DNA from: Geosiphon pyriformis uo1 | Lineage: Eukaryota; Fungi; Glomeromycota | Direction of reading: 5' to 3' | Length of the DNA: 64,000 nucleotides | Assembly: GCA_016748015.1 (NCBI GenBank) | Contig: JAAOMT010000577.1 | Location: 350,489 to 414,488 of the forward strand | In this document: positions 11,067 through 54,799 of the stretch, in pieces | Layout of the letters: every line of letters starts with the position of its first letter | Position numbering within the stretch: position 1 is the first letter of the stretch | The notes under the pieces: generated by a model | The model's input: the letters and a program-made list of their open reading frames with translations, nothing else | Told to the model about the DNA's origin: nothing | The model's database searches: none | Made by a program: the position numbers and the translations under genes

Positions 11067-14000
11067 GCAGTCTGGTTTGGAAATTTGCTACGTGTAATGT
11101 TTATGGTCTGACTGTTTCTGTTAAACAAGGGGATGTTGTCCATTGGCATAAAGAATCAGGCAATATGGTGTCTTTTATTACAAAAACCAAGTTGTGCTCT
11201 AGCATTAAACTTTGGATTGCTGATAGGTTCAATGACATCTGTATTTTTATGTCAGGTCTGGATAAGGGGTTTTTTGATGCTGGGGTGGCCATTATTATGA
11301 ACAGTTCCTTGGCTCATCATGTTTCTAAGGTGGAGGAAGTTTCCGGTCGGGTTATTTCTGTTCGGCTCTTGTTTAAGGACAAGCTTTTAGTCACTTTTTT
11401 GGGATTGTATGCAGGTGCCTCTTCTGGGATCAGATATGGTCAGGCTTTTAAGATTAATTCTCTCATTGCGAGGGCTGTTAACTCCAGCACTTTTGTTGTT
11501 TTGAATAGAGACTTTAATGAAAATAGATCTGGTAAAAGTGTGAGTTTCAAATTTTGTTTGAATTTGGGTTTGGTCAATTCATTTGTTGGTTTTCATTTGG
11601 CTGGATCTTCTACATGGAGCAACTCAAAAGAAGTTGAAAAAACAATTGATTACATTTTTGTTAGTGGGAACTTATTATTTACTGTTGCTGATCATAAGGT
11701 TGCCTCAGTCTCAGTTTTTTTGACACTGACCACAGGGTGGTAGTGGTGTCAATCAGCTTAGGTGAGCTTCTGGATGTTCATTTGAATAGCTTGCATAAAC
11801 AGGCAAACAGGGATTGTTGGAAGTTCAAAATCAAGGATGCTGGCTGTGTTCAATGGGCCAAGTTCAAGGATCTCTTGTCAGCCAAGCTCATATTATTGGG
11901 TAAGTTGTTCTCTGGTGCTGAATTATGTGGGGATGTAGATGCTATGTGGGCAGTTTTGGAGAAAGCTGTGGTGATGTCTGCTGATGTAACATTTTTGAGA
12001 CATTGGTTTAACAAATTTAAGTGTTCGAGAAACAAACATTCTTCTAAGTTTTTTGGTTTGGAATTGTTGGTGGCCAAGATTGTCAAGCATTTCATTCTAA
12101 TGATCTGTCTGAAATCAATCATCTAGTGAGTAGATGATCAACTTTGGATGATGCCAAGGCTCATGCTTTTAATGTCTTATTCTGCTCAGGTGTGAAGTCT
12201 GAAGTTATTGTTAAACATTTGTTATTGGTCTGCAGAGACTATAAAAAGTCAAAGATGTTTAAGTCAAGGTTGGCTAAGGAAGCTTCTATCAGAAAGACAA
12301 TTGAAAGATGCATGAAAAATTTCTGTTTGGATAAAGATAGTATGATCAGAAGTGTGTTGAACAGACCTTTTCACAAGGTGGTGTTGGATCACTTAGTGGT
12401 TGACAATAAGCTGATTCTAGAACCTGAGGAGATGAAGTTAAATGTAGACAAGATTATAAAAGGATAGACAAGGAAGTGCTCAGTGCTTTCAGTGCTCTCT
12501 GACCTTTGGGCCCATCAGTATGCACCTTTGGAATATGTTCAGGATGACACTTTTTCTGGTGTTATGTGTGTGGTCAATATGGACAAGTTGCTTCTAGTTG
12601 TTTTTAGTCTGCCTGATAGCAAGGCTGCTGGTTTGTTTGGTATTTCAAATGAGCTGTGGAAACATAGTGGTGAGGTGGCTCTAAGGTGCCTGTTGAAGCT
12701 GTTAAATATGTGTTTGACTGTTGGTTTGGTGCCTGCTTTGTAGAAAGAGATGTGGGTTTCAATGATTCCTAAGCCTTATGATTGAGATGGAGTTCTTACA
12801 AACACTTGGCCCATTGCTTTAATTAAAAGTGCCAGGAAGATCATTTTTAAGATTTTGTTTGATCATATTTCAGTGGCTTGTAACAAGTTTAATGTGCTTC
12901 AAGATGACAATTTTTTGGTGTTGAAGGGTACATCCACACAATCTCTGGTGTTTGCTGTCAGGTCAGTAGTCAAGGATGCTCTTGAAAAAAATAGAGAAGT
13001 GTGATTGGTTTTGCAGAACATACAAAAAGCCTATGATTTGGTAGAATGGCATCATTTAAAGACTAGCTTGTGGTATATCAAGATGTGTGATAGATTTATT
13101 AGGTTTTTTGGTGGTATTTATGAAGACAGAGTTAACAGGGTGATGACTGACTTTGGTTTGTCTGGTGGTTATAGGGTATATGATGGACTGGATCAGGGTA
13201 AAGTCTTTTCGCCTCTTCTGTAGAGGATCTTTTATGACCCTCTTTTATATAAAGTCAAGAGACATGAACAATTGTGTAGGTATCGAATTAATACTAGGTT
13301 TGTTTCGAAGACTGGATGGATTGAGAGTGGTGGAAGTCTTACCTCGTATTTTTCAGCTGGTGCATTTGTTAATGATACAATCTGGATTGGGAATTGTCAA
13401 GCCTTCACTCAGTATGCTTTGAACATTACCAGTAAGTTTTTTGAGGTCAATGATATTTCTATTAACAGTGAGAAGACTGTGGCTATTCTCATCAATCAGG
13501 GTGTTAAAGTTGCTTCATTGAGTATTTGTGGACAGTCTATTTCAATTGCTAAGAAGGGCGAAGCGCATTGCTATTTGGGTATCTTTTTGTTTACTAAGGG
13601 GTTGTCCAAACCAAGTGTTGCCAAAGCTCATACTGATGTTCATTTTTTGTCAATGTTGTGCTTAAAAAGACTATTACAGATAAGCAGTTCTTGTATTTGG
13701 TTTTGGCTGTCTTGCAGCCTATTGTCAGCTATCGTATTCAGTTTAGCTTTGTTTCTTTTAGTGTTTGTCACAAGTGGGATGTATTGGTTAGGAAGAGTCT
13801 TAGGTCTAAAGCTTGTCTTCCCTGTAACTTTTCTGATGCCGCTTTGCATCATCTCTCATTGTATAACCTAAAACCCTTTAAGCAGGTGCAATCTGAAGAG
13901 AAGGTGGCTGCTCTGATAATGTTCTCTAATGCTCCTAGTATTCTTGGGCATTTGTTTAGTCATAGATTTCTGGATTTGCAAGTTCTGAATTGGGCTCCTT

Positions 14001-15751
14001 TGGACTCTTTGCAGTTTCTTGTCAGGTTATGTGTTAGTCCAGTGAACAATTTTCTGGCTGGGTTGGTTAAGATCTTTTTGGACAATAAGCTGTCTTTGGC
14101 AAATAATTTCTCCACTGCTTTTTGTAGTCCTGGCCATTTTCCTTTGTCTTCTATACTTGGAAAGTCTTTGTATTTTGATTCGGTCAAATCTCTCAAATGT
14201 TTTGGTGTTGTCTTTGGTGATCGGTTTTTTGATAAGAAAGGTGGGTTTGTTGGATTGGAAGACTTTTTGCCATTGGAAGAGATTGGATTCACATGGTCCT
14301 GTACCTCATTGGTTTATGGTTGCATCTGAGTTTTTTCTGGATAAGAAGTTCTTGTCATTTGACACTCCTGGTTCTTTTGAGCTACATGGATTGAATGTAT
14401 TGAGGTTTAGTGAGTTTTTTGCTATAAAAAATGGATTGCATATTGTTTGGTTGGGCTTTTTTGGGGTTTATACAAATGGGTCCTTGAAGAATGCTGGCTC
14501 TGCTGAGGTTGCAAGTGGTGCTGCTGCATACTTTCTAGCCTTGGATCTGAGTGTTGATGTTGTGGTTTGGGGTTTTATGTCTTTTACCATGGCCAAATTA
14601 CAGGCTGTTGTTTTGTCTTTGGAGTGTGTCCCTTTTTCTAGTACTGTAGTGTTGCATTTTGATAGTTAAGCTGCCATTAACGCATGTGTATCTGAGATGT
14701 CTCTTGATGCCCCCAATTTCCATAATCAATGCTGGCTTAAGAGGCGTCATAATTTTAATTTGGTTAGGGATAAGGATCTTAATGTGAGTTGGGCTAAGGT
14801 AAAGAGCCATTTCAGGATTTCTGGTAATGTAAGAGCCAACTTGGCTGCTGGGGCTGCCTCTGGGTCTCCCTTTTCACTGTTGGCCAATGTGCATAAACAC
14901 TTTCTGGTTGCTAAGAGTACTGCTGTTTTTGGTAATGCCCATTATTTTGTTTGGGATATTTTTTAGTCTGTTTGTTATGCTCATTGGAAAGCTGGCTCTG
15001 GCTATGATGTAGTTCCAGATGTAATAGTTGGTTGTGTGGACTGGGTTGCTACTGCAAGAGTGTGACATCCTAATTTTTATATGCTTTCTGGTTTTACTAG
15101 TCACAAGTCTTCAACACTCTGCTTTTATATGATGAAAGCTGTGCACAAGAGATTGCCAGTGACAGTAGGAAGAGGCTGTATAATAGATATTACCCTGGCA
15201 TGCTGTGTCTGTTATGTGGTGGTGTGGAGTTCTCTGACCATGCTTTTACTTGTGTTCATGAGTCTGGCATTCACAATAAGATCTTGGCTGAGACTTCTGC
15301 TTGTTGGTCTGCTGTGGCTGGTGTTTTTGATTGTTTTTTGTCTGCTGTATTATGGGTACTATCTCAATGTTCCATTGATGTTGGGTTGTATGCTTTGGTA
15401 TGCAAGGGGTTTGTGCTGGATGAATGGCTTAGGAAGGCTTGTTGTGTTGTTGATGACCAAAAATTGGCTGTTGCTCAGATTGTTGATTTTGTAAGATTTA
15501 TTGTTGAGTTGTATTGTGCTAGAGTGTGATTGGTGAGATCTAGCCATTGGGTGGTGATAGAGAAGGCTGGTTTGGTTTGGGATGGTAGTGTTGTTTCTGG
15601 GCTTTCTCATGATGTGTCTTCTTTGTTTTCTGATAGTATTGTTAAGTTGCTTGGTGTGATTAAGTCTTTTACTGTTAGCTTTGATTGTCAGAAGCCATGT
15701 AGTTTCTTCTCTGGTCTGGGAGGTAGTGTACAGGTTATTATAGGTGTGTAG
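11063..15751 (+). pseudogene. LINE ORF2: APE endonuclease, reverse transcriptase, RNase H, C-terminal CCHC finger
   Basis: ATG at 11063, MSSLVWKFATCNV. APE motifs GVAII, RDFN, TWSN, IDYIFVS. RT motifs QKAYDLV, QGKVFSPLL, AFVND (decayed YxDD). RNase H VYTNGSL...HFDS...SGNVRAN. Finger CLLCGGVEFSDHAFTC. Several stops and frameshifts. Confidence 0.9.
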
Positions 15752-16071
15752 TATTGCCTTGACTGGCCTGAGTGACTAGCCATATATAGTAAGTGCATGA
15801 GTCATGTTTAGTTTGAGCCTCTTAGTTTGGCTCTATATACTAGATAGTAATTGGGCTTCACTCGTTAAATCCTTTAATAAAAAATAAATAATTAATTAAT
15901 ATTGAATTTTAAAAGTACTAATATTATGAGTAAATTTAATAAAAAAAAATATTATAACTTTAATATTTAGATACAATTAATAGAAACAGTTTTTAAAAAT
16001 AATTAAAAGTTTTTTGGCAAATTAGTTTTTGAAAAGTTTTTTTTGTCAAGATTTTATTTATTAAGTTTTTT

Positions 16072-19000
16072 TGTTATAAAACATAAAATTTATAAAACAT
16101 TTTAATATAATAGCTATTTAATAACTGTTTTTAGTATAGCTTATTAGTAAATTATTCTGTTATTGTTTTTAGTTATTAATTGTATTAAACTGTTTTATTT
16201 TGTACTAATTAATTATAATTATTAGTATTTAATATTGTTTTTTTGCTTTTTTAATAAATTAATAATGTTGTTATAAATTAGAGTAATAAGCTAATAGATA
16301 GCAAAAGAGAACAGATTTGTAGAATAATAAAATTAATTAAAAAGAGAATTACAATAATAAAGTAAATTGAATAAATAAAAATTTAATATATGTGATCAAT
16401 TTTATAAAAATTACAGTTGCAAATTTTTTTTAAGAATTTAAAAGTAAAAAAATAATTTGTAATTGTCAACAAAATAATATTACTGCTATTATTCTATGTC
16501 TTAACTCAATGATTTTTAGAATCAATAACAGATATTATTATATTTTTCAATTATTTTTTATTTAAAAAATTACAAGAGCAAGCAATTGCTTTTCAAACTA
16601 ATTTTAACAAAACAAATCAAGAAAAAAAAAAGATATATAAAAAAAAGTAATTAATAGTGGATTTTATTTTGTATTTTAATTATGTTTTTTTATAGTTAAG
16701 AGACTTATTACTTATATAACTATAAAAAGTAATTAATAACTAAGTCAATAATTAAGTCAATAATTAATTTAATAATTAGATCAACAATTAAGTCATTGAT
16801 TAAGTTAATGATTAGGTTAATAATTAGATCAATAGTCAGATTATTGATCAAGTTAATAATTACTATCTAAAAATAAAGATGCTAATTATGTAATATTAAG
16901 TACTAATACATGTAATAATTAATAAAAATTATGGGTTTTAACTATAATATTATTCTTTTTAAAAAGATTAAATTTTAGCAAAATCAAGCTTTTTATAAGA
17001 TATTCTAATTAAAAAGTTTTGTTTAATTTAAAGCTAACTAGTTTATTAAAGTTTTTTGTTGTATAAGATATATAATATTTGAAACAAGATAAGTTTTGTA
17101 TAAGAGTTTTGGCTTTTCTAGCAATAATTAAACTTTTGAAACATTTAACTATATAATGTCTAGAATTTTCATTTGTATTTTTAAAGTTGTTTTTTTTATA
17201 AGCTTTATATTTTCTATAATTTCATCAAGTTAACCATAAAACTTTAGTTGTCTTTTATATAACAAATTTTTGTTTATGGGCAAAATTTTTTTAATTGTTT
17301 GTTCAAATATATTATAAAATACTAGTATGCTTTTAAGTATATATTTATCTATTTTGCTACCAATTTTTTCTTTTTTGGTAGTGGTTATTTTTGGTTTAAT
17401 AATAGTATATATTCTATTATTATCAGTTATAATAATCTGTTTTCTAATAGTCAAAATAATATTTAGATAATTTTTGATCTAATATTCATAGAAAATATAG
17501 AAAGTATTTTGAATATTTTAATTTAAAAAATAATTGTTCATGTAATTGAAGATATTTCTGTTTTGAAAATAGTGCATTTATTTATATCTAATTTTGGCTG
17601 ATTATTTGGATTAGTATTACCATAACAGATAACCAATCAGATTGTTTGTAATATTTTTTGAATTGTGTACCATAAATAAAGTAATCATTAAAGATTGTTC
17701 TATATTGATCTTGTAAAATATAAAAACTATTGTTTAAAACTTTGTTGACTATAAAGAATTTTTTCTACTGACTAGAGAATTTATTACTATAAATATTGTT
17801 TCTGTTTAAGTGGTATTTTAAAATTAAGTTATTAATACTTAAAAAAAATATTTTATAAGTTTTTTTTTTCTTAAGCTTTTTTTAAAACTGTCTTATCTTT
17901 TTATCAAGAAGTTAATAATAATATTAAGTCTTTTTTGCAAATGTCTTTGTAATTCTCTATTGTGATTTTTTCAAAAAATATTGTTTTAATATCAGTTTCT
18001 ATTAATAGTGTTGCTATTTGTCTATAGAGCAGATAAAAAAGTTCATAACTTGTTATGTCCTAATTCACAGTTTTATAAGCAAATAAAGCTAAAGATAGTA
18101 TTTTGTTTTATAAGTTTGTTTTTTCACTGGTTTTAGCTAAGATTTTACATAGTGTTTTATTAAAACATTCTACTAAACTATTTGTTTAAGAATAATAAAG
18201 AGAAGAAAGTTTATAATACATTTCCATTTTTTTACAAAGTTCTTTAACCAGTGTACTAAAAAAAGCTTTTTCTCTGTTAAATAAAAGTTTTTTAAAACAA
18301 CCATAGTGACAAATAATATTTTTATAAATAAAGTTGGCAATAAAGACTGTTGTTTAATCTGGAATGACTTTTGCTTCTACTTACTTTGTAAAATAGTTAA
18401 TAACTGTAATAATGTATTTATTGCTATTAAGAGTTATAGTTAAAGATCTAACAACATTTATACCAATTTTATTAAATAGTTAATCAACAAAAATTAGATA
18501 AATGTCTTTTTTGCATTTGGGTTTTTCTTTTTTTTTAACAAGTATTACAGGTTTTGATGTATTTAACAATGTTTTTTTCTAAAGTAGACTAATAATAATA
18601 AGCTAAAATTTTTTGAATTGTTTTTGTTTTTCCAAAGTGTTTAGCTAATAAATTAGTATACATATTATAGATCATGATTTTTTTTTCTTTAATTCTGATA
18701 ATTTTTTAAGAATAATCAGAATTTTTTTTATTTTTTTTGTAAAATTGGTTTTGGAAAATCAAATAAAAATTTAATTGTTTGCACAAATGTTTTTTTTGTG
18801 CTCAAGTATAGTTTAGTGAGTATTGTTTTTTATCTAAAAATTTTATTAAGACAGAATAATTGTTTAAGTTTATTATTGTATTTGTTAATAAAGAGATTAT
18901 TAATAATTAGGTTGGTTTGGTTTAAAAAAATTGTATTATTATTAAATAATAAGTCTAGAAAGAGTGTTGGCATTTTAATAATAAATTTTTTTACAATATT

Positions 19001-30453: not shown

Positions 30454-31460
30454 TGTTACCAGATGAAATTAGAGATATTATTTAGCATGAAATTATCTTT
30501 ATAATTTCTATCATTAATTAGCATATATTATCATTTCAAATTATTACTTATTACATTAGCAAAATGTCCGAAATTATCATTTAATTAATAACCCAATTTG
30601 TACATAACACAAATGTAACCTAATTGCAATAATCAATCATATAATACCCCAAAATATGTAACATTCAAAAGTTCGCCAAAATTTGTAGAAATTTGCTGAA
30701 ATAATTGATAGTTCACCAAAATATCTAATAGTTCACCAAAATATCTAATAGTTCGCAGAAATAACTTGTAGTTTGCCAAAATGTATCTTTAGTTTAGTGA
30801 AATTGTAGAAAAGAGCAAAGTTCAAGTTTATGGAATAGTGTTACAACAAGTTGTATAAAAAAAAAGCTTTTCTCTTCAAGAAAATATATCTTACTTTAGA
30901 TTTATTATTTAGAACTATTCTTACACACACAAAAAGAAATAAAATATCAAATAATTCGAAAAACCAATTTTTTTAAAATATTGCACTTGGAAAATCTCCA
31001 AAAAACCCAACTAACATTTTAAAATTAATTAGCTACCAATTTCAGTAAACTGTTAGTGACTCTAGACCTGGATAGAAAATCTTTCCCTTGACAAAATTCT
31101 ATTTCTTTTATATTTCTTTTATTTTTTTTCTTTTATTTTCTTATTATAATCATTAGGGTAGCCTACAGACAAGATTCTTGTAGAAGAATTGACTTTCACA
31201 GCAAAGTAACTACACATTTTTAATGAGCTTCCAGACAAGCAATTCCTGGGAAAGAGTTGACATTTACTACAATGTAACTACATGAAGCAACTGGCATGGA
31301 ATTGGCCATTCCACTTATAAGCCCAGCAGTTCAAATTATAGGAGATAATTTAAAGATAAAATTCAGTTATTGGAGGTTCAAACACTTCCCATAGTCGTAA
31401 ATTAACAGCACTACAACAAACATACGAAAGCTAAGAAGAGACCAAAAACCTTCAGTAACA
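30454..31460 (+). repeat. 5' LTR of B
   Basis: TGTTAC...GTAACA, 1007 bp. ~20-bp tandem units at ~30670-30810, one more unit than in the 3' LTR. TATAAAA at ~30854. Confidence 0.95.
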
Positions 31461-31462
31461 TT

Positions 31463-31470
31463 TGGTGCTC
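31463..31470 (+). promoter_or_regulatory. Primer-binding site TGGTGCTC, complementary to a tRNA 3' end GAGCACCA (tRNA-Ile(UAU)-like)
   Basis: Lies 2 nt after the LTR end. Same motif at the same offset in D, E, F (49159-49166) and G (59151-59158). The tRNA identity comes from recalled eukaryotic Ile(UAU) 3' ends. Confidence 0.75.
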
Positions 31471-31505
31471 TTCTATAGAAACAACACAGCAAAAACAACT
31501 TCAAA

Positions 31506-34500
31506 GTGGTGACCACACCAGATGCAACAACTCTAGAGTATTACCAGTCAATTTACACCCACTGCAAGCAAAGATTTAACATTCCAGACGGAATTGAAGT
31601 TGTCAAGAAATCAGTATACCAATACATTGAAAACCACATCAACAATTATCTTTTTGGAAATTACAATATTTCAGAAGTTAGAAGCAACCTTTACAATAAT
31701 TTAGTACACTATTCACAGTTGGGAACTGAAGACCTTAACAGTGAAACACTTGTCACTTACTTTCAAGAACTTAATTTTAACATTATCAAGTACTGTGAAG
31801 AAACATATCTAGTATAGTCTCAATACTCTATTGATTTTGAATCAGAGACTGAAACAAGCAACAAAGGCAAACAAAAATTGAAGCAATACTCAAAAACCAC
31901 TCCAAATACTCCAATACTACTAAAAACAACTGCCAAACACTTACAAACACCTGAACAAGGAACCAGTTCAAAACTTCCACTTACTATCACACCTTTTCCA
32001 GCTTTACTTACATAAGCACAAACACCTAATTCACCCTTAAATTGATTTGCAAGACTAGAAGATTTTACATCACCCAGAAGTACCAGACAACAAAAACCCT
32101 TTCAAACTAGTTCCAATCTCCTTGACTTTCTAGCTGAAAATCAAAGTGAACACTCTGAGACAGTAGCGAATGAAGAAAACAACTCTAAAATATCTGAAGA
32201 AGAATTAATAGACAGTGAAAATGAAGAAAATGAAATAACAGCATATATCACAAAAATCCCTGAATTTAATGGAGAAGACATTGAGACCAGTTCCCAAGAA
32301 TGGCTCGACCAAGTTACTAAAGCTGGAGATGTAAATGGATGAAATGCTGCCAGAATGTTAAGAACAATTTTCTACTTTCTTAAAGAAACAGCAGGCAAAT
32401 GATTTGAAAACTCGACCACCTCTTTTAATGACTGGACAGCTTTCAAAACTGCCTTCTTAGAACAACTTACCAATAACAACACCTCAATCACATTTCAAAA
32501 TTGTTTTCACAATATCAAACAAGAGCCCTCCGAATCTGTCATGACTTATATTGGGAAATTCAACAAATTTCTCAGACAAATTTGCCAACTTGAAACTAAT
32601 GATTATTATTCCGATGCTCAAATTTTGGATCAATTTATTGCTGGTTTAAAGAATAAACTGATTAAAAAGATTCGCCCACATGTCCCAGAAGATTTAAATT
32701 CTGCCATTCAGCATGCAAAAAGATATAAAATGACCATGTAAAAAACCAATCATACAAAACTCGTAAACTTAGCCATTGGAGAGACCAGCTCAGCAGCTGA
32801 AAGGAAAATTGACCAACTCACAAAGAAAGTTGAAAACTATTTCACCAACCAACAACAACAGCAACCCCAAAGATATTAACCATCCCAAAGATAGAATCAA
32901 AACAACTTCATATCATCCTCTAATAACCAGCCTTAGAATTGTCATTACTGTAAAATTCCTGGCCACTGGAAAAGAGATTGCAGAAAGCTACAACAAGACC
33001 AACAAAACAGGAGTAATCAACATTACCTTTTACCACAACAATTTTATTACCAACCACCACTACCACCAGCTTACTATTTACCAAGACTGCAATATCAAAC
33101 CGACTACTATCAATCTGTTCCATAGCCAATGCAACAACAGTATCGACAATCTATTCAACATTACCAAGTATCTGCTTGAAGATTGGTTCAACAAAACCAA
33201 TTTGCACCACAAAACCAATTCGCAACAAACAACAATAGAATCAACCCAAATAACCAATTAGTTCTCTGAAATCCAGCTCAGCCAAGACCCACCCATTATC
33301 ATACTCAATCTAGCTATCTTACAATACTTGAAGAACAGAATTTTTACCATACTGCACTCTTGGAAGGTAGAGCTGCAGCATGACAACAAAACTCTTCCTA
33401 TACTCCTACCACAATTTCACTAGCCAGAATTGCTGAAAACGCCAACCTTTCAGATATATTCTCTTTTGAGTTTGAAGCAAATGAGTTACTATTTCTGCTT
33501 AGCAATACAGCCGCCAACGAACAAAAAGCAATCACTGCTATGTACACTGAAGCAGAAGTTAAAGAAAAGGCAATTCGCTTGATTCTAGACAGTGGATCTG
33601 CCAGAAGCATCATCACTTATTAGTTAATGCAACAGTTAAAGAGAAATGTCAACTGACCAGCTCAAACAGTAATTGTCACTGCTAATGGCATGAAAAAAAT
33701 TCCAGTAGGAGAAATTGACAATTTTCCATTCACTCTTAATGAAATCACCATTTCAGTTAAAGTTCTTGTAATGAACATGCCCCAGTATCAAGCCCTTGTC
33801 AGAAATGATTGGCTCCAAAAAGCCAATGCAAAATTAGACTGGAAAACCCAAGAATTACAACTTTCTTATCAAGGACAATATGTCCGAGTACCCACTACTT
33901 GTGGTACATTCAACAAATAATCAGAGAAAGTACCTGTCTTTAAATTTGAAGAAAAGGAAGAAAAGCCTGTAGTTGAAACATTTATGGCAATTGAATCAAC
34001 ATCTAACTGGGCTGAAGAAACTGAGCAAATGTATTTTGCAACAAACTTATATTCAGAGGAACCAGAAACTTCTGAATGGAACATCCCATATTCTAAACCA
34101 GAACCAAAGAAATGACACCCTTACATTCTGCTCAAATGCAAGGACTGCTACAAAAAACTTTTCTCAATGGGAGCCTGCATTTCATCTGAAGAAGAATATG
34201 AAAATCATACTTGTTATTACTGCAAGGCTTGCCACAGAGAACGATAGAGCCATCTAATAAAAAAAAGCGGAAAATAGGACAACACCCCTTGTTTGACTTG
34301 TGGAAATATGCTACCAGAAGAATGCATTTGGATTGATATAGCAATGAGAGGAGGAGTTTGCGATCAAACCTGCCAATATGTTTTATTAATTTCAAAAAAA
34401 GTCAAAAAAGGAACACTTTTTGATACAACATACAACAATGCTCTCAACAAACTTTATCACTACCCTCATGATGCTAAGATGATTTTCAACCTAGTAATGG

Positions 34501-37128
34501 CATTAGTTAATGGAGCTACCAAAGAAGATGTTTGTTAAATAAAAGAAGCAGAATACATTGAATACACCATGGAATTAGCTGGATTTAATTATGAAGATAA
34601 AGTAAAAATGTACTATCAAATCGCAAGTTACACCTACTTGACTAAAGAAGCTCAAGCTCAATGGCTAGAACAAATGAACATTAAATTATGTAAGGAATAC
34701 ATAATGCTTTGTGATGAACAATAGTGTTCTGAATGCTACGCTCTTAGCATTCCCTTGCCCAGCAAAAGTAATGAATACAAAATTGAATTTGGAAAACCTG
34801 AAGCAACAGAAAAAATTGAAACAACACCCATTTATCTCATCAAAAATCAGCCTGTCTTACAACTTAAATACTTCAACAACAACGGACAAAGAATAAAACC
34901 CAAAAAAGCACATGAAATTAATGCTGGATATAACCTAAGATATCCAGACAAGAATACTCTCATTCTCAAATCCAAATCTCTCACAAAAATCAACCTCAAA
35001 ATTGCTCTCAAAATCCCGCCAGGAGCAATGGTTCAAATTGCCTTCCAGTTTTTTCTGGCAAGCAAAGGAATCAATGTCAGAGGAGAAATAATCAATGCTA
35101 AATATACTGGTAACATAACAGTAATACTCCAAAATGAAACTGACAAGCCGTTTAAGATTAAACATGCTGAGAAAATTGCCCAAGCCATTTATTTACCCTT
35201 AATCAATATTTTGGGTTTACAATTAGTCAATCAAAAAGAACTATTGAGAAAAAATGAAAGAGGAACCCAAGGTTTTGGTTTAACTAGATGATTTACAGTT
35301 CCAATAAACATAGCCCTCAATGAACAGAAAGAATCTCACCAGATTTTATGACTTCTACAACCAATTACCATTTCACCCTTTGAAGAACACTCTGAAATTT
35401 ACACTTGTAAAAAGCCAACAACTACACAACAAATTTTTGAGTCCAATGAACAAATCTGCTTGGAACATAATATCTTGATCCCAAACATTTATATTCCAGA
35501 AGGAACAAAGAAAATCTGAGTTACTTTTTACAATCCCAACAATTTCCCCATAGTTTTATTAAATAACTTAGAAATTGGAGTTATTTACAGTAATATCTTT
35601 CAACAAGAATTATCCCAAACAGTCCCCAATTTCTCTGAAATTATTGAATATTTACTACCAAAAATCAACCCAAACCCAGCTCTGAAAACTACCATGTTGT
35701 CATGGAAAAACTATCTCGAATTAACATAGAACAACTTGAACCACAACAACAGAGCCAGCTCAAAGAGCTAATTGCAAAATTTGCCGATATCTTTGCTGAA
35801 AACAACAATGACTTAGGAAAAACCAATTTGGTCCAACACCAAATCTATACAGAAGATGCCAAACCAAGGTAACAGCAAGCCTACTGAGTTGCTCCAGAAA
35901 GCCACCAATTTATCTGCGAAGAAGTACAATGGATGTTCAACAATGGGCTTATCCAACCATCAATGAGTCCATGGGCCTCACTTGTGATTTTAGTTAAAAA
36001 AAAAATGGAAAGATATGATTTTGTGTTGATTATCGACAACTTAACAGTATTACCATTGGAGATGCCTACCTTTTTCCTCAAATTGATAACATGCTAGATG
36101 CTCTTGGGAAGTTCAAATACTTTTCAACATTAGATTTAGAAAGTCAATACTGGCAAGTTGCCATGGATCCCAAAGATCATCCCAAAACAGCATTCACCAC
36201 TCAAGGAGGAAATTACAAGTTCAATGTAATGTCTTTTAGATTATGCAATGCACCAGCAACATTCCAAAGACTCATGGATGTTGTTTACAAAGGTCTTCTT
36301 TGGAAATCAATAGTTGTCTATCTTAATGATACTGATGTTTATTCATCATCTTTTGAATTACACTTAAAACACCTGCACAAAGTTTTTCAACGATTATGGA
36401 AAGCAGGATTGAAACTGAACATCGAAAAATGCTACTTTGGAAAAACAAGTTTGGCCTTTCTTGGTCACATTGTTAGCCAAGATAGAATTAAACCAGACTC
36501 TGGAAAAATCAGCACTGTCAAAAACTTCAAGACTTCACAAAATATCACAGAATTAAAAAAATTTATTGGATTAGCATCCTATTACTGAAAATTTATTAAA
36601 GGATTCTCAGAAATCACAAAACCCCTTAACCAGCTTACTACTAAAAACGTTGAATACAAATGGACGGAAAAACACCAAAAAGCTTTTGAAATTCTTAAAG
36701 AAAAGCTGACAACAGCTTCAATTCTCGCCTACTCAGACTTCAGTAACCAATTTTGACTAGCTACAGATGCTTCTTATACTGCCTTTGATGCCATCTTATC
36801 ACAATTAGATAACAACAGAAACAAGCGAGTAATCACTTATGCTAGTAGAACATTAAAACCAGCTGAGAAAAACTACTCTGCCACAGAACTAGAAACAGCA
36901 GCCGTAATTTGGGCCTTACACCACTTCAACCTTTATTTCAGGCCTAAAAAATTCGACATTATCACTGATAATATTGGACTCAAATGGCTTCAAAATAAAA
37001 TCACTTAGCTGAATGCCAAACAAACCCAATAGACAGAATTTTTAGCCAACTACTAATATATTATACACCACAAATCAGGAAAACTTCATACCAATGTTGA
37101 TTGTCTTTCAAGAATGAGGCAAAATTAG
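31506..37128 (+). pseudogene. gag-pol: B ORF1: leader domain, capsid (~32235-32740), knuckle (32940-32981), protease (~33530-33900), Cys-rich domain, dUTPase, RT (~35750-36600), RNase H (~36720-37128)
   Basis: AYITKIPEFNGED, CHYCKIPGHWKRDC, LILDSGSA, LCNAPATFQRLMD, VYLND, ATDASY, NYSATELETAAVIWA. Ends ...LSRMRQN* (TAG 37126-37128). Confidence 0.92.
34896..35291 (+). pseudogene. dut: dUTPase domain of B
   Basis: NAGYNLRYP, GEIINAKYTGNI, EKIAQAIY and ERGTQGFGLT: trimeric dUTPase motifs I and III-V, with motif II decayed. Confidence 0.92.
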
Positions 37129-37174
37129 AATACAAAACCAACACCCATTTGAATTAACAACAAAACAACAAACA

Positions 37175-38560
37175 ATGAACCATGAAAACTACAACAATCT
37201 TAAACAATATTTGGAGACATTAACAATTCCAACAGATTGGTTCTCAGATAAAAAACATCAGTTACAATAACAAGCCAAACAATACTTCTTATACAACAAC
37301 ATGATTTATTATCGAAACTTCAGAAACCCAGACAATCTACTCAGATTAATACAAGAACATGAAAAAAAAACTATTTTATATAACATGCACTCAAACCCTT
37401 CATTAACACACCTAGGAAAAGACAGCACCACCCAGAGAACACTAGAATATTACTTTTGGCCTCAAATGAGAAAAAACATTCATGAATTTGTTAAGTCTTA
37501 TAATAGTTGTCAAAAAAGAAAAGGAACTCACCCTACAGAATCTTTAAATCCAATCAAAGTTGAACAGCCTTTTGACTGAGTTGGTATCAATTTAGTCGGA
37601 CCACTACTTATCACAAACCAAGGAAACCATTATATTGCAGTAGCTGTAGACTATCTCACCAAATGGCCTGAAGCCAGAGCCATTCAATAAGCAGATGCAA
37701 AATCAGTAGCAAACTTCATCTACAAAAACATTATTTGTAGACATGGATGTCCAATAAAACTTTTATCTGATCAAGGAACACATTTCGTGAACAATTTAAT
37801 CCAGGAAATTTGTGGACAATTTAATGTCAAGAGACTATTATCTTTGCTTTACCATCCACAAACAAATGGACTTGTAGAACATTTCAACAGAACATTGTGT
37901 GAATTATTAGCCAAAGTCTCAACCAATTTTGAGCAAGAATAGGATCTCTTTATTCCATCAGTGTTACTAGCATATAGAACACTAAAACAAGATATCACAA
38001 AACACATACCATTTGATTTAACCTATAGAAGGACAGCAATGTTACCAATTAGTTTCACAATGGAAACATATCCAGTACAACCAATTAATAAAGACAACTT
38101 TCAGGAAACACTACAATGAAGAGCCTATACACTGCTTAGCACATTGGAAGGAAAACGACGAATAGCAGCCACCCATATTAAATACTCCCAAGCTCAACAA
38201 AAAAAATGGCATGACAACAAATTGCCACCAATCACTAATGAATTTAAAATTGGAAACAAAGTTCTCTTACACAGAACTAAAGCTAAAAAACAATGGAGTA
38301 AAAAATTTAAAAATAAATAAGATAGACCATTTTTTATTCATAAAGTTCTAGACAACGGATTATACAAGATAAGACTTGATGACAAAATCTTAGCAAAAGT
38401 TGCACATGGAGATCATTTGAAACACTATAATTCCAGAAACAATCTTGAATCATTAATTTCACAAATTAGTATACATTCTTCTTTAATTAATCCCGAAAAT
38501 ATTCTCCAAAATTTAGAACCAATAATTGTTATTGAACAACCTCCCAACTTGAACACTTAA
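37175..38560 (+). pseudogene. int: B ORF2: stand-alone DDE integrase (HHCC, catalytic core, GPY/F-type C-terminus, no chromodomain)
   Basis: ATG 37175 to TAA 38560 is 462 codons in one net frame. H..HLG..YFWP..SCQ; DYLTKWPEA; SDQGTHF; YHPQTNGLVEHFNRTL. Internal point stops. Confidence 0.9.
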
Positions 38561-38682: not shown

Positions 38683-39401
38683 ATGACTATTCCTCAAAAC
38701 ATTCAACAATTATCTCAAAAACTAATGTTAGCTTTAAAAACAATACCCAAATTATCCATTACTGTTACTAGAAACCACATTAATTATATCTAAACAGAAG
38801 TAGTTACAAATTTAGCCCCAAATTCACAAAAATATTACCCATATAAGAAGAACACAAGAAGTTATTCTGAAATTCACCTGCCAGAACTTTTAAAGCTTGC
38901 TTTAAGGGAAAACTTAATGCTCACTTCTATTAGTATTCCACCAAATGCTACTATTCAACAAAAACTTCAACTGTGTCTTAATGAAGAAAACTACGATTAT
39001 ACTCCAATATATAGATATTTCTACATTGGAAAAACACTTCACGAATGAAAATGGAAGCTTACAGCAGCAAATCTCACAAAAAAGCTATTCGGAAACAACT
39101 TCACAATGAATTCAAGACAACAGCTGGACCTACAAACAGTTGTTATAAACTAAGAGCTGCTCTTAGACTTTATAACCTATTCCACACCTGTGAAAACGTT
39201 TTACAAAACCCAATTTTACAGCCTTTGAAGATTCAATACATTGGAAAGCTTACAGAACTGAAATTTCAACAATTTTCAGACAAAATTTCTTCAATAATTT
39301 TGGATTATTTTCTGGAAATTACAGACAGTACTTGGACTTCAACAGAGCTCAGTCTTGAAGAGGAGGTTATATTACCAGACGAAATTAGAGATATTATTTA
39401 G
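38683..39401 (+). pseudogene. B ORF3: accessory protein of unknown function (~240 aa), ending inside the 3' LTR
   Basis: ATG 38683, MTIPQNIQQLSQKLM...YRYFYIGKTLHE, a frameshift near 39050-39080, then KAIRKQLHNEF...LRAALRLYNLF...EEEVILPDEIRDII*. A homologue sits at the same position in G. Confidence 0.7.
39357..39366 (+). promoter_or_regulatory. Polypurine tract of B
   Basis: GAAGAGGAGG ending 3 nt before the 3' LTR start at 39370. Confidence 0.8.
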
Positions 39402-40355
39402 CATGAAATTATTTTTATAATTCTTATTATTAATTAGCATATATTATCATTTCAAATTATCACTTATTACATTAGTAAAATGTCCGAAATTATCATTTAA
39501 TTAATAACCCAATTTGTACATAACACAAATATAACCTAATTGCAATGATCAATCATGTAATACTCCAAAATATGTAACATTCAAAAGTTTGCCAAAATTT
39601 GTAAAAATTCACTGAAATAATTGATAGTTCACCGAAATATCTAATAGTTCACAGAAATAACTTGTAGTTTGCCGAAATGTATCTTTAGTTCAGCAAAATT
39701 GTAAAAAAGAGCAAAGTTCAAGTTCATAGAATAATGTTACAACAAGTTGTAAAAAAGAAGAGCTTTTCTCTTCGAGAAAATATATCTTACTTTAGATTTA
39801 TTACTTAAAACCATTTCTACACACACAAAAAGAAATAAAATATCAAATAATTTGAAAAACCAATTTCTTTAAAATATTGCACTTGGAAAATCTCCAAAAA
39901 ACCCAACTAATGTTTTGAAATTGATTAGCTACCAATTTCAGTAAACTGTTAGTGACTCCAGGCCTGGATAGAAAATGTTTTCCTTAACAGAATTCTATTT
40001 CTTTTACATTACTTTTATTTTCTTTCTTTTATTTTCTTATTATAATGATTAGGGTAGCCTACAGACAAGATTCCTGTAGAAAAGTTGATTTTCACAGCAA
40101 AGTAACTACACATTTTTAGTGAGCTTCCAGATGAGCAATTCTTAGGAAAAAGTTGACGTTTACTACAACATAATTACACAAAGCAACTGGCATAGAATTG
40201 GCCATTCTACTTATAAGCCCAGCAGTTCAAATTATAGGAGATAATTTGAAAATAAATTCAGTTATTAGAGGTTCAAACACTTCCCATAATCATGAATTAA
40301 TAGCATTACAACAAACATACAAGAGCTAAGAAGAGACCAAAAACCTTCGGTAATA
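39370..40355 (+). repeat. 3' LTR of B
   Basis: Direct repeat of 30454-31460, 986 bp. Ends decayed to TATTA/TAATA. Differences from the 5' LTR are mostly transitions. Confidence 0.95.
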
Positions 40356-41061
40356 CTATAGCATCCCAAAACCACAGTTTTGTCAATTTTTTTCTCAGCT
40401 TGATGGCTGGTATTCCTCCTGGTAAGCTATCCTTAATTGAGTGTTCTACCTTTATTTTTGGGTCTTTTACCAGTTACATTTATTTTGATGTCAGTACCCT
40501 GCGCATTAATCTTCAATAAAGTTAGTAAACAACAATAAAATCAAAGCAAAAAATAAAGAAAAAAAAAGAAAATAAAGAAAAAAAAGAAATAAGCCAAGGT
40601 GATTTGCAAATTAGTATTCCATGAATAGTCATGATCAAGAGCTATTGTTCCAGTGTGGTTAAGTATCAATTACTATCAACATGAAGTGTTGATAGTGGAA
40701 GTGGATTTGAGATAACAAATAGTTATTTTATTAGATGATTGTGATTTGGGGAGTTGCTTAGATTAAATCTAAACTGAGAGGTCTGTTTTTTTAATTTCTA
40801 ATACTACTGTTATATATATATAATTGAGATTCCTCAATTCCTCAATTCTTCATGACAGGAATCCTGGAATTTCTGGAATCCTGTGATTCCTTTGGGAAGA
40901 ATCCTGGAATTATGGAATCCTGCGATTCCTTATGAGAATCCTTCAATTCCTGAAATTCTGCAATTCCTAAAAGGAATCCTAGAATTTTTCATTTACTATG
41001 TCTACTTCTGATTGGCTAATAACTATGCTAATATATCTTTCCTATATTTTTAGGAGTAACA
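40356..41061 (-). mobile_element. Family A LTR (H), truncated at its 3' end by element B
   Basis: Minus-strand start TGTTACTCC at 41061, then CCAAT box, GGAATCC/GGATTCC array and TATA. Stops mid-LTR at 40356. Confidence 0.88.
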
Positions 41062-43694
41062 CTGGTTTTTTTGACTGATCTTGGTAATTGTTTCACACAA
41101 TGTTCTATTGAATTTTTCAATTAATCCATTGGTTTGTAGATGGTATAGTAATGACAATGGTCTTTTAATTCCAAATCTTTGACTTAATTCTGTCAATGTT
41201 CTATTCACAAGATGAGTTTTTTAATCTAATAGTAGTTTTTTTGGACATCTATGTTGACAGATCAAATCTTAATGAACAAATTTGACAACAAATTTTACAT
41301 CCACTCTTTGAATGGGTTTTGCTTCTGGCCATTTTGTGAGATAATTTATAACTACTGTGATATATCTGTTGCCTTTACTAGTAATTGTTAATGGTCTGAC
41401 CAAGTCAATTTCAATGCAATCAAATAGTTGTTCTACTTTAATTGGTCTCAATAGTTTACTGGGTTTTGTTCCTTCTCTTCTCTAACAAGTATCACAATTT
41501 TGAACATATTAGATAATGTCTAAATACATAGATGGCCAATAGTATCTTTTTCTGGTTCTTTTCATGGTTGTTTCTTTATAGAAATGTTCTGCTGTTGGAT
41601 CTGAGTGCATGTTAAACAATATTGTCTCTTTCTCTGGTTCTGTGATTACTTTGGTTGGTTGGTCTGAATTCTTTCTGTTCTTTTAGTAAAGTATATTTTG
41701 GTGATTGATAAAATATTTTGATTGTTGTTTTATGTTGTTTTGTTCTTTTTGAGATAATTTTTTCTTGAACAATTGAGTATTTATATAATATTAGAGTTGT
41801 TGATATTTTTGTATATTCATTTTTTTTTTGTTATATTTTTTTTTGGTTTGAAATGTTTTTTTTTAGATTTGTCTCATTCGTAACAGACCATTAGCATTTC
41901 CATTTTCTTTTCCTTTTTTTATAATGTACTGTATAATTAAATGGTGAAAGTTCTATTTTCTATCTGGCATAGTGATCATCTCCAAATTTTTGTTTCTGAA
42001 TTGAAGTTAATTCTTTAAGATCTGTATACACATCAAACTTTTGACTCAAGTATTCTTTCTATTTTATAACTGCCCAATAGATTGCTAAGTGTTCTAATAC
42101 TGGTGTTCTATAGTTTTTTTCTGCTGGATTTAAGTTTCTATTGGCATAAGCTACTAAATGTTCTCTTCCATCTGGTTCTTTCTGTAATAGTACTGCTCCC
42201 AATGCTTGGCCTGATGCATTAGTAATAATAATAAATGGTTTGCTGTAATCTGAATACATCAATACTGAAACTTAAATAAGCTTTCTTTTCAGTATGTCGA
42301 ATGCTTCTTATTGAGCTTCTGTTTATTTATACTTTATATTCTTAGTTTGTAGATGATAAAGTGGCTGTGCCAGTTTTGAAAAGTCTTTAATAAAGCAGCA
42401 ATAATATCCAGCAAATCCCAAGAATGCTCTTAGTTTTGTTAAGTTAGTTGGTACTGGAAAGTTTTTTATTATTGCAATATTATTTAGATCTGTTTTAATA
42501 CCATCTTTGCTTACAACATGTCCCAAAAATTTGAGTTCTGTTTTTCCAAAAAAACATTTGTTTGCATTCAACTTCAATCCTATTCTTCTCAATCTTTCAA
42601 ATACTTGTTGAAGATAATGTAGATGATTATCAAATGTCTTAAAGAACACATTTGTGTTATTTAAGTAAACAACTACAGATTTCCACAGTAGTCCAGTATA
42701 GACAATTTCTATAAGCTATTGGAATGTTGCTGGAACATTCATCAAGCCAAATAGCATTACTTCAAATTCGAAATTTTTTTCTCGCATTGTAAAAGCTGTT
42801 TTTTTTTTATTTTCTGGTTTCATGACTACTTGCCAATAACCACTGTCTAAATTTCGAGTTAAAAACCATTTTTTTTTTCCAAAAGCATCAAATAGTTTTT
42901 GAATTTTTGGAGTTGGGTAACTATCATCTTTGGTTACTCTATTCAGTTTCTAATAATTTACACAAAAGCAGATTTTTCCATTCTTCTTATAAACTAATAC
43001 CACTGGTAATAATCATAGACTCATTAATGACTGGATTAACCTGTTGTCAAGCATCTGATTGATTTCTTGATGAATAATCTCATGGCTAACTGATAGTACT
43101 CTGTATGCTTTCTGTTTAATTGGCATTGCATTTCCAGTCTTGATTTGATGTTGAATGATGTCAGTTCTGCCAAATTCATTTTTACTGGCAAAGATGTTGT
43201 TGAAATTGTTGAACAGCATCTTGAGTTGCATATGTTGTAGTGGGTCTAGATTTTCCAAGTTCATTTGTTCCAATTGTTCTGGTTGGAGCAGATAATATTT
43301 TTCTTGTCTATATATTGTTTGTGATGTGATATCCACATATTCACACAATTGTAAAAAGTCTGGAATGGAGTTTGGTGGTTGTTCTTCAATTTTGGTGGTT
43401 AAATATTCAATAGTGGTTTCCTCTGGTATCTTGATAATATGTTTTGTGTTGTTGTAAATGGGAATTTTGATGTAACTATGGTTTTTGGCTGGTATGTATA
43501 TATTGACTAATCCAATTTCTTCTGATTCACAAAGTGTTGCTTCTGCCTCAAAAATCTGAACTTGATCTCTTACTTTTCTCTCTATAACTACTATATATTG
43601 TTTATATAGTGAAATAGAAATTGGTTAACGGGTGGAAATAATTTCTCTCTTGTTGATAATTTTTTCCTCTGCCATATTGACTGATACATCTATT

Positions 43695-51542: not shown

Positions 51543-52919
51543 TTATGTGTTTGGTTTAATAATTATGATTGGTTCTAAATCTCATGGAATCTTATCTGGT
51601 TTGACTATTATTCTCTGTACTCCCAATTGTAGAATATTACTGGTGGATGATGATATTATATGGTAGTATGGTTTTAGTTAATCACTATGTACTGCTTTGG
51701 TTAAAATTTTGTTGTTTAATTTTAATTTATAAGCTCCATTTTCTAAAATTTCTTCTATGTGAAATGGTTTATCCTATTTGGAGTCAAATTTTCTACTCCA
51801 TTGTTTTTCTGCTTTGATATGATGTAGAAGTACTTTGTCTCTAATCTTGAATTCAATTGGTTTCTCTGGTAGTTGGTTATTATGTCTTTTTTTTGTTTTT
51901 CTTGTGACTTTTGGATGTTATCAGCTGCTCTTTGCCATTTGTTTTCTAGTGTTTCCATTAAATCATATGTTCTTTTAAGCAGCATTTCCTAAAAATTGTC
52001 TTCAGTTATTGGTTCTGTTGGATATGTGTTGACTTCTATCTCAATTGGTAATGTTGCTGTTCTACTATATATTAATTCAAATAGTGTTGCTTGTGTAGTG
52101 TCTTGTTTCATTGTCTGATAAGCAAATAGTACTGATGGTATAAACAAATTTCATTTGTCCTAGGTTTTTTTGGCTGATTTTGGCAATTGTTTTACACAAT
52201 ATTCTGTTAAATTTTTCTACTAGCCTATTGGTTTGTAAATAATATAGTAATAATAATGGTCTTTTTATCTCAAATCTTTGACTTAATTCTGTCAATGTTC
52301 TATTCACAAAGTGAGTTCTTTGATCTGATAATAGTTTTTTTGGACATCTGTGTTGATAGATCAAATTTTGATGGATGAATTTGGCAATAAATTCTGTATT
52401 TGCTCTTTGAATGGCTTTTGTTTTTGGCCATTTAGTAAGATAATCTATGGCTACTGTAATATATCTGTTGCCTTTGCTATTGATTTTTAATGGTCTAACT
52501 AAATCAATTCTAATACAATCAAATAGTTGTCTTATTTTGATTGGTCTCATTAGTTTACTGGGTTTTGTTCCTCTTTTTCTCTGACAAGCATCATAGTTTT
52601 GAACATATTAGATGATATCTGGATACATTGATGGTTAATAGTATCTTTTTCTGGTTTTTTCTATGGTTGCTTCTCTGTAAAAATGTCCTGCTGTTGGATC
52701 TGAGTGCATGTTGAATAATATTGTCTCTTTTTCTGGTTCTGTAATTACTCTGGTTGGTTGATCTGAATTTCTTTTGTTTTTCTGGTAAAGTATATTTTAA
52801 TAGTTGATAAAACATTTTGATTGTTGTTTTATGTTATTTTGTATTTTTTGAAATAATTTCTTCTTGAACAATTGGGTATTTATATAGTGTTAAAGTTGTT
52901 GGTATTTTTGTATATTCAT
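51543..52919 (-). pseudogene. int: G ORF2: stand-alone integrase
   Basis: ATG 52919 MNIQKYQQL to TAA 51545-51543, 459 codons net. DLVRPL, DYLTKWP, SDQRTHF, QTNRLVEKFNR. Confidence 0.88.
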
Positions 52920-54799
52920 CTTTTATTATATTTTTGTTTTTAACTGTTTAGATTTTGTTATATTTTTGGGTTGAAATGTTCTTAGATTTGTTTCATTCTC
53001 AACAAACTGTTGGCATTTTTATTTTTTTTTCCTTTTTTGTAATGTACTGTATATTTAAATGGTGAAAGTTCTATCTTCTATTTGGCATGATAATAATCTT
53101 TAAATTTTTGCTTTTGAATTGCAGTCAATCTTTTATGATTAGTATAAACATCAAACTTTTGACTCAAGTATTCTTTCTATTTGATAATAGCCCAATAGAT
53201 AACTAAGTATTCTAGCACTGGAGTTCTATAGTTTTTTTCAGCTGGACTTAAGCTTTTGCTGGTATAAGCTACTGGATTTTTTCGTCCATCCAATTTTTTT
53301 TGAGATAGTACAGCTTCTAATGCTTGACCAAATGCTTTAGTGATAATAATAAATGGTTTGCTGTGGTTTGAATAAATTAATACTGGGGCTTGAATAAGTT
53401 TTCTTCTAAGTGTGTCAAAAATTTTTTGTTGAGTTTCTATCTATTTGTATTTGGTGTTCTTTGTTTGGAGTTGATGTAATAGTTAAGCTATTTTGGAAAA
53501 GTCTTTAATAAAGCAGTGGTAGTATCCAGCAAATTCCAAGAATATTCTTAATTCTGTGAGATTATTTGGTACTGGAAAGTTCTTAACAATCTTGATCTTA
53601 TTTGGATCTGTTTTGATATCATCTTTTCTCACTACATGTCCCAAAAACTTGAGTTCTGTTTTGCCAAAGAAGCATTTGTTTGCATTTAATTTCAATTCTG
53701 CTCATCTGAGTCTTTCAAATACTTGTTGTAGATAATGTAGATGATTATCAAATGTCTTGGAGAACACATTGGTATCATCCAGATATACAACTACTGATTT
53801 CTATAGCAGTCTAATATAGACAATTTCCATGAGTCATTGAAATGTGGCTGGAGTATTTATTAAGCCAAATGGCATAACTTCAAATTTGAAATTTTTTTTT
53901 CAAGTTGTAAAAGCCGTTTTCTTCTTGTCTTCTGGTTTCATGGCTACTTGCCAATAACCACTGTCTAAGTCTAAAGTCAAGAACCATTTCTTTCCTCCAA
54001 AAACATTGAAAAGTTTTTAGATCTTTAGAATTGGATAGTTATCTTCTTTGGTTACTCTATTAAGTTTCTGGTAATCTACACAAAAGCAAATTTTTCCATT
54101 TTTTTTACAGACTAATATTACTGGTAATAATCATGGGCTCATTAATGGCTGAATTAGTCTATTGTTAAGCATCCAATTGATTTCTTAATGAATGATCTCA
54201 TGGCTGGCTGGTAGTACTCTGTATGCTTTTTGTTTAATTGACATTGCATCTCCAGTTTTAATCTGATGTTAAATAATATCAGTTCTGTCAAATTTGTTCT
54301 CACTGGCAAAGATGTCATTGAAATTATTAAGTAACATTTTAAGCTGCATATATTGTAATGAGTCTAGATTTCTCAAGTTCATCTGTTCCAATTGTTCTGA
54401 TTGGAGCAAATAACATTCTTCTCATTTGTATATTGTTTGAGATATAATATCTATATATCTGCACAGTTATGAAAAGTTTGAAATGAGGTTTGGTGATTTT
54501 TCTTTAATTTCAGTGGTTAAATATTCAATGGTAGTTCTTTCTGGTATCTTGATGATATTTCTTGTGTTGTTGTAAATAGAAATTTTGATATGACTGTGGT
54601 TCTTGGCTGGTATATATAAATTAACTAATCTAATCTCTCCTAATTCACAAAGGGTTGCTTCTGCCTTAAAAATCTGAATCTAACTTTTTTCTCTATGGCT
54701 ACCATATACTGATCATATGGTGGAATGAAAATTAATTGACAGGTGAAGATAATTTCTCTCTTGTCAATAATTTTTTCTTCTATCATATTAACTGATACA

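Follow-up and report, generated by a model that had tools for sequence, protein, structure and literature searches.

A Ty3/Gypsy variant, found in Geosiphon pyriformis and in related elements, with integrase in a reading frame of its own

In textbook long terminal repeat (LTR) retroelements, integrase enters the particle as part of Pol. A stretch of 64,000 nucleotides from Geosiphon pyriformis uo1 (contig JAAOMT010000577.1, positions 350,489 to 414,488 of the forward strand; hereafter the window) holds Ty3/Gypsy copies in which reverse transcriptase (RT)–RNase H ends at a stop codon and integrase follows from a separate ATG. Is this integrase a gene in its own right or the remnant of a broken Pol frame, and by what route would ribosomes reach it? 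A sequence-only reading of the window had proposed an independent integrase open reading frame (ORF) in two LTR families, and the relatives described below support that proposal.

The junction can be read in copies B, F and G, for which every coordinate in the sequence-only reading was confirmed. Copy B reads RMRQN and then TAG, with a spacer of phase 1 before an ATG at 37175 that opens MNHENY; F reads RMRQI (spacer phase 0, ATG at 41820) and G reads RMKQI (phase 2, ATG at 52919). The features of these junctions and of a fourth copy are as follows.

35798..37128, + strand: copy B RT–RNase H (RT-RNase H profile matches; translation), ending LSR-MRQN-TAG, the stop at 37126-37128
37129..37174, + strand: copy B spacer, 46 nt, A/C-rich, unstructured and without ATG, AG or GT
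37175..38560, + strand: copy B stand-alone integrase ORF, 461 codons with six decay stops
41821..41865, − strand: copy F RNase H stop (LLR-MRQI and then TAA, 41865-41863) and 42-nt spacer
41056..41820, − strand: copy F integrase ORF from its ATG, truncated, interrupted at about 41056
52920..52984, − strand: copy G RNase H stop (LLR-MKQI and then TAA, 52984-52982) and 62-nt spacer
51543..52919, − strand: copy G integrase ORF beginning at its ATG, 458 codons, a net frame only, with a compensated shift
18871..18944, − strand: fourth copy junction, with a stop at 18944-18942, a 68-nt spacer and ATA in register with the start codon

In B, F and G, the RNase H stop lies four codons past the last RNase H motif, and the integrase Met aligns with position 1 of the integrase profile. 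The spans reported earlier for the B and G integrases were right, while their lengths of 462 and 459 codons had counted the stop. The division into two families holds, since the B integrase is 45-46% identical to those of F and G, which are 78% identical to each other. The fourth copy is more decayed and very AT-rich but keeps the same stop-spacer layout, and its relatives show ATG at the ATA position. All window copies are dead: the frames examined carry 4-12 decay stops each, many of them C>T/G>A changes, and Asn replaces the first catalytic Asp in the B integrase. Thus, the window alone cannot tell design from decay, and the relatives decide.

Relatives were collected by a metagenome scan with integrase core patterns, which is blind to fusion state, and the best 80 of 549 stretches were kept. 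RNase H lay upstream of integrase in 49 of these loci, the contig was too short in 14, and RNase H was lacking on the contig in 17; by eye, 13 of these 17 show a Cys/His-rich or kinase-like tail, which ends Pol in some split elements. All 49 loci with RNase H are split at the conserved ATG and none is fused, with both pol and integrase frames intact in 23. The intact relative nearest to B is L003, which has a short spacer. The sequence-only reading had named an intact copy with a continuous RNase H–integrase frame as evidence against itself, and no such copy was found in the 49 loci; stop, frame-free spacer and ATG occur throughout the lineage, intact copies included. Spacer phases are spread evenly (15/16/18, or 12/13/14 in the 39 groups left by dereplication at 80% identity, with a median integrase identity of 51%). 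The catalytic DDE residues are retained in 60-61 of 61 aligned integrase rows, and the terminal repeats of four contigs are 97-100% alike, as expected for young multi-copy families.

The same start recurs among proteins. A search with the B integrase returned 975 relatives of similar length (long proteins were excluded). In the best 120 of these, 100 start at the same Met, 2 carry that Met behind an extension and 18 begin at a later residue; the second residue is Asp, Glu or Asn in all 100, which we take to be the NatB acetylation pattern. Because the relatives share the split (49/49 junctions, 100/120 proteins at the same Met), a chance origin of the window layout is excluded. Among named homologs, the closest comes from Geosiphon pyriformis itself (74% identity over 35% of the query), many others are from Rhizophagus, and two Rhizophagus irregularis clusters hold 35 and 42 members, many full-length. 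The split lineage is large and probably belongs to mycorrhizal-type fungi.

Apart from the place of integrase, these elements follow Ty3/Gypsy. Copy B is a whole element with 1-kb LTRs, Gag, zinc knuckle, protease, dUTPase, RT–RNase H, integrase, a decayed third ORF (ORF3) and a purine tract, and its remaining parts are the following.

30454..31460, + strand: copy B 5' LTR (TG...CA; termini read from the sequence), 90% identical to 39372-40353 over 1003 columns
31463, + strand: TGG, candidate primer-binding site of copy B, 2 nt past the 5' LTR
31362..35690, + strand: copy B gag–zinc knuckle–protease–insert–dUTPase frame (Pfam Retrotrans_gag, zf-CCHC, Asp_protease_2 and dUTPase)
38683..39401, + strand: copy B ORF3, decayed and frameshifted, crossing the polypurine tract into the 3' LTR
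39357..39366, + strand: candidate polypurine tract GAAGAGGAGG, read from the sequence
39370..40355, + strand: copy B 3' LTR, pairing with the 5' LTR at 90% identity

The gag–dUTPase frame is decayed and overlaps the end of the 5' LTR. No clear target-site duplication, which in Ty3/Gypsy measures 4-6 bp, was seen around the decayed copy B. Ty3/Gypsy hallmarks present are a TG...CA 5' LTR, TGG 2 nt downstream, a purine tract before the 3' LTR and the domain order Gag–protease–RT–RNase H–integrase, which the intact locus L026 shares (Pfam; profile map). In RT–RNase H trees (subsets of 146 and 63 out of at least 218 rows, with no non-Gypsy outgroup or named reference clades), split elements stand among Gypsy Pol proteins. 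The split label is clustered on these trees (3-4 changes versus 21-29 in shuffles), while the backbone is weak and a few fused rows are interleaved with split ones. Constraining the 34 split rows to one group raised the likelihood (p-AU, from the approximately unbiased test, 0.875), so a single origin of the split is allowed by the trees.

The canonical position of integrase, inside the Pol polyprotein, was found in none of the 49 loci, versus 59 of 64 in other lineages. The latter figure comes from a control RT–RNase H scan of another collection, in which, of 82 loci, 59 were fused and 5 were broken or split, while 16 had no downstream integrase and 2 no RNase H end; two of the five broken or split controls (L083 and L136) have their own integrase ATG, and L136 groups with the split elements. 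A search of representatives at 50% identity met mostly chimeric gene models with several RTs, and by single-domain scores only, the top five lack integrase at their end and fusion prevails among the lower ranks. The viral contig collection yielded no integrase relative and 3 distant RTs, all fused. No description of a Gypsy integrase in its own ORF was found in titles and abstracts, a search outside which subscription journals and Repbase lie, and mycorrhizal transposable element libraries may contain such elements. The split-integrase elements form a variant of Ty3/Gypsy. Two side observations concern the control material. Loci L081-L159 are eukaryotic Gypsy elements in many GTDB genome records, apparently on contaminant contigs. 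Six of them (L097, L102, L103, L106, L119 and L155) are Gypsy RTs from contaminants of marine metagenome-assembled genomes, with a frame that ends 17-42 codons past RNase H and no integrase downstream; their layout is possibly that of Gmr1, with integrase upstream.

How would the integrase frame be translated? From the junction sequences, we see an even chance that integrase is made by termination-reinitiation on the full-length RNA, at its own conserved ATG, and subfamilies may differ in mechanism. Ribosomes would finish RT–RNase H, remain bound and restart at the integrase ATG. In relatives of the overlap type (TAATG, ATGA, or gaps of -8 to -20 nt) the restart would be direct, while in the window families the 40S subunit would scan across a spacer that is short, unstructured and free of ATG, a mode proposed for LINE-1. 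Integrase made on genomic RNA could then be captured in cis by the same RNA or by adjacent Gag/Pol, and the same restart may also serve ORF3, whose gap from integrase is +5 nt or less at 9 of 32 junctions. Gaps between the pol stop and the integrase ATG range from -20 to 943 nt: the ATG overlaps the stop or follows within +2 nt in 11 of the 49 loci (as TAATG in 3 and ATGA in 1), 4 gaps measure 3-30 nt, 24 measure 31-100 nt and 10 are longer, three of these being measured from premature stops in broken tails. Ten non-redundant overlap-type ATGs have 2-6 other ATGs within 100 nt upstream, without synonymous avoidance (25:5 versus 94:29, p 0.47); a subgenomic leader that is scanned should not tolerate these, so restart is favoured. 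Spacers are depleted of ATG (6 in 29 spacers versus 19.9 expected, with 0 of 300 dinucleotide shuffles as low; 2.8 per kb versus 21 per kb in 3' control regions), and this clearing points to scanning.

Several observations weigh against termination-reinitiation. Excerpts of PMC10275272 describe reinitiation of the TURBS kind (at a termination upstream ribosome-binding site) as acting within about 30 nt and independently of Kozak context. Spacers exceed 30 nt in 34 of the 49 loci, beyond that range, and the start context is strong (purine at -3 in 45/49, G at +4 in 43/49). The TURBS motif UGGGA occurs 5' of the stop in 3/49 only and the gap is within 30 nt in 15/49, so a TURBS is not indicated. 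Among the 10 loci with gaps above 100 nt, two intact ones, L012 with 365 nt and L032 with 192 nt, have 7 and 6 upstream ATGs. In elements with spacers above 30 nt, ATG avoidance continues into the last 60-90 nt of pol (40:25 versus 342:99, p 0.008, uncorrected for kinship), a pattern that a transcript 5' end close by would explain just as well. Finally, RT–RNase H is itself reached only by readthrough or frameshifting in some elements, so that few ribosomes would arrive at its stop.

It is possible, if doubtful, that integrase comes from a shorter RNA of its own, made from an internal promoter near the RNase H end or by env-style splicing to an acceptor 5' of the ATG, with the spacer as the 5' leader. 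The strong start context, the ATG-free spacers and the avoidance extending into the pol end would suit such an RNA, as would the T-rich tracts 3' of the stop in several loci and the upstream ATGs of long spacers, which lie far from the start; excerpts of PMC3705302 report that a spliced RNA yields foamy virus Pol. However, the upstream ATGs of overlap-type elements argue against it, YAG acceptors are not enriched (39 versus 36.9 expected), AG is absent from 9 of 32 spacers and also from those of B and F, and no conserved promoter-like or splice motif was found across subclades. In the window, B, F and G share an in-frame Met four codons 5' of the RNase H stop, so any transcript with a 5' end beyond this Met would include a short upstream ORF. 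An excess of branch-point-like YTRAC (29 versus 10.5) was set aside, as it shrank to 24 versus 15.9 with dinucleotide shuffling and acceptors were not in matching excess. A-rich leaders act as entry sites in yeast, and internal ribosome entry at the integrase ATG without pol translation might use the A-rich spacer (A at 32 of 42 positions in F) or, in one group, a conserved hairpin, a covarying 40-nt structure that ends about 5 nt or less from the ATG in 16 of the 24 loci that have it. We consider this route improbable: the hairpin is missing from 56 of the 80 loci and was not found in the window, the window spacers fold no better than shuffles, and 15 of the 49 gaps are only 30 nt or less. 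Of the mechanisms offered by the sequence-only reading, reinitiation, a subgenomic RNA and internal entry therefore stay in play, while splicing into an in-frame fusion is unsupported.

Continued production of a Pol–integrase fusion, whether through stop readthrough, frameshifting or a junction intron, is very improbable. Its case lies in joined proteins: the best 120 matches of a long-protein search include six at least 44% identical, the rest being more distant, conventional Pol, and these six are five mycorrhizal gene models (P0122-4 and P0128-9) that join RT or Gag to integrase and the metagenome protein P0126, a true-looking RT–RNase H–integrase–ORF3 fusion. However, the gene models cross the junction at different places and three of them delete the last RNase H motif. 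Of 39 loci, 8 would allow a GT-AG join in frame without loss of this motif, and the sites are unrelated. Readthrough or frameshifting needs a fixed phase, whereas the three phases are equally common; readthrough of a single stop is possible at 3 of 49 junctions, and a readthrough context was seen in 1 of 49. Stops elsewhere in Pol look different: an in-frame stop separates protease and RT in 7 of the 21 loci examined, always as TGA-CTA, the type II readthrough motif in excerpts of PMC3542737, and an eighth in-frame stop lies inside RT. Protease–RT stops thus bear a signature of programmed recoding that RNase H stops lack (1/49). Nor would an invariant Met be selected in a fusion. With readthrough, frameshifting and in-frame splicing all unsupported, integrase starts at its own ATG. 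Scarcely credible, in turn, is that the stops are decay, or that the integrase is a separate Ginger/Maverick-type DNA transposon beside a dead pol. The window frames are indeed rich in C>T/G>A stops, and fungal Ginger has been defined by proteins with only the rve domain (excerpts of PMC5751038). Yet intact pol and integrase adjoin in 23 loci, a single LTR pair encloses both in B, and in sequencing run X1 the decay stops vary, while the junction stop is not among the variants listed. This run, which contains 55% of sampled words of B and may derive from the same source as the window, gave 1478 contigs that aligned to the B junction; most lack the internal stops of B (69% of depth at 37006, 96% at 37031, 65% at 37054 and 99% at 37268), whereas the best 40 of 84 differences include no variant at 37126-37128 or 37175-37177. 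In six X1 contigs, the sequence from 37127 onward reads TAA followed by another spacer. For the lineage, decay and Ginger are refuted by the intact split copies.

The hairpin is a 40-nt RNA structure of two helices, found just 5' of the integrase ATG in 24 of the 80 loci, on the sense strand and once per element (for example, L026:5192-5231). Matches in 23 of the 24 have E below 1e-7, 19 of these having built the model. In the alignment, pairing holds in 97% of cells and compensatory changes occur at 7 of 12 pairs, more than in any slid control; an invariant U-G pair and a CA-NN-GYGA loop mark the structure. Among 9 loci, none matched Rfam at E up to 1, and the hairpin region gave weak, partial matches only (E 0.36-6). 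Spacers of the L001/L002 group have no consensus structure, and four L009/L012-type spacers have a weak one. The hairpin may act in initiation, autoregulation or cis-loading of integrase. Most of the loci in which an acidic and Cys/His-rich tail of 236-344 aa follows RNase H (L026:4345-5163, L029, L038, L049, L066 and L069) also have the hairpin; the tail has no Pfam match in L026. Another group (L064:2354-3013, L062, L071 and L077) carries a thymidylate-kinase-like P-loop domain on RNase H, with a Pfam E of 4e-5 in L064 that falls below the curated cut-off. An Mrr-type nuclease ORF lies 5' of integrase in L077. Elsewhere in Pol, the TGA-CTA loci are L009, L010, L012, L052, L056, L073 and L074, a type II readthrough signal for Pol, and L001, L007, L048 and L054 show TTTAAA(C) at a frame change between protease and RT.

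The tricistronic element of the sequence-only reading stands for the lineage: 32 of the 80 loci show an ORF 3' of integrase, a count for which many contigs are too short to be informative, and 28 of these ORFs form one family. In copy B itself, ORF3 is decayed and weakly matched to that family (12.8 bits; E 0.02). The predicted structure of ORF3 is helical and confident (predicted local distance difference test score, pLDDT, 95). Its members share no Pfam family, and the model gave no clear match against PDB, BFVD or with a wide aligner (best Z 5.3, root-mean-square deviation 3.4, 69 aligned), from which a new fold does not follow. In P0126, ORF3 is fused to the integrase C-terminus (probability 98%), which suggests that ORF3 is an integrase accessory domain. 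The ORF3 slot is otherwise filled by a NUDIX protein in L021:1945-2886 and by a helix-turn-helix protein in L015:6546-6941.

Among known systems, canonical Ty3/Gypsy elements (Metaviridae) share with this lineage the LTRs, Gag, protease, RT, RNase H and HHCC/DDE integrase in the same order, and a dUTPase likewise lies between protease and RT in the fungal Ty3/Gypsy elements PosPlaTy3-5 (excerpts of PMC2864245). The difference is that integrase here stands outside the Pol frame with its own ATG and is followed by a conserved helical ORF3; the B integrase has no chromodomain match in Pfam. Stop/restart is described for the victorivirus HvV190S (AUGA), for the hypovirus CHV1 and SART1 (UAAUG) and for LINE-1 with its 63-nt spacer (excerpts of PMC10275272 and PMC5972666). 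As there, a second long ORF begins at or soon after the first stop, with window spacers of 42-62 nt. Those systems are RNA viruses or non-LTR elements, however, whereas the present one has a gap that varies from -20 to over 300 nt, no conserved TURBS motif and a putative mechanism. Foamy virus Pol and hepadnavirus P are likewise replication enzymes made apart from the capsid protein and are packaged through genomic RNA and protein contacts (excerpts of PMC3705302). In the foamy virus, as described there, the whole of Pol is separate from Gag and only the integrase-bearing precursor is packaged, whereas here integrase alone is separate from RT. Ginger DNA transposons also have a stand-alone Gypsy-like integrase, but the present integrase is part of a retroelement, placed after RNase H and before the 3' LTR; Ginger was rejected on RNase H directly upstream in 49 loci and direct LTRs in B, the loci not having been searched for inverted repeats. 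Troyka, with CG...CG termini and a 3-bp duplication in excerpts of PMC12440569, is unrelated, the B 5' LTR being TG...CA.

An integrase outside Pol would need an unusual route into the particle. A tentative picture is that of an old fungal LTR lineage with a polycistronic, virus-like programme, in which Gag-Pol, integrase and ORF3 would be made by successive restarts and integrase loaded in cis via a dedicated RNA element, the hairpin being one form of it. If so, the Pol fusion would be dispensable for integrase delivery, and the lineage would stand, as a living intermediate, on the way to elements with integrase only (Ginger-like) and to elements without it (caulimovirus-like). Since the lineage has multiplied without the Pol–integrase link, it makes testable how a eukaryotic ribosome gets to a second long ORF and how integrase locates its own cDNA. 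For annotation, mycorrhizal genomes deposit these ORFs as stand-alone 'DDE-type integrase' genes or bridge them by predicted introns, and surveys that take rve-only proteins as Ginger, a definition seen in excerpts of PMC5751038, could misassign split integrases.

Two further observations concern the window. Between protease and dUTPase of copy B (34000-34800, + strand) lies a Cys/His-rich insert of several hundred codons without a Pfam match. Long open frames of opposite GC skew, with a CCHC knuckle near 10386, occupy 9330-15775; this region is unmatched by Gypsy RT or integrase profiles and is a different element.

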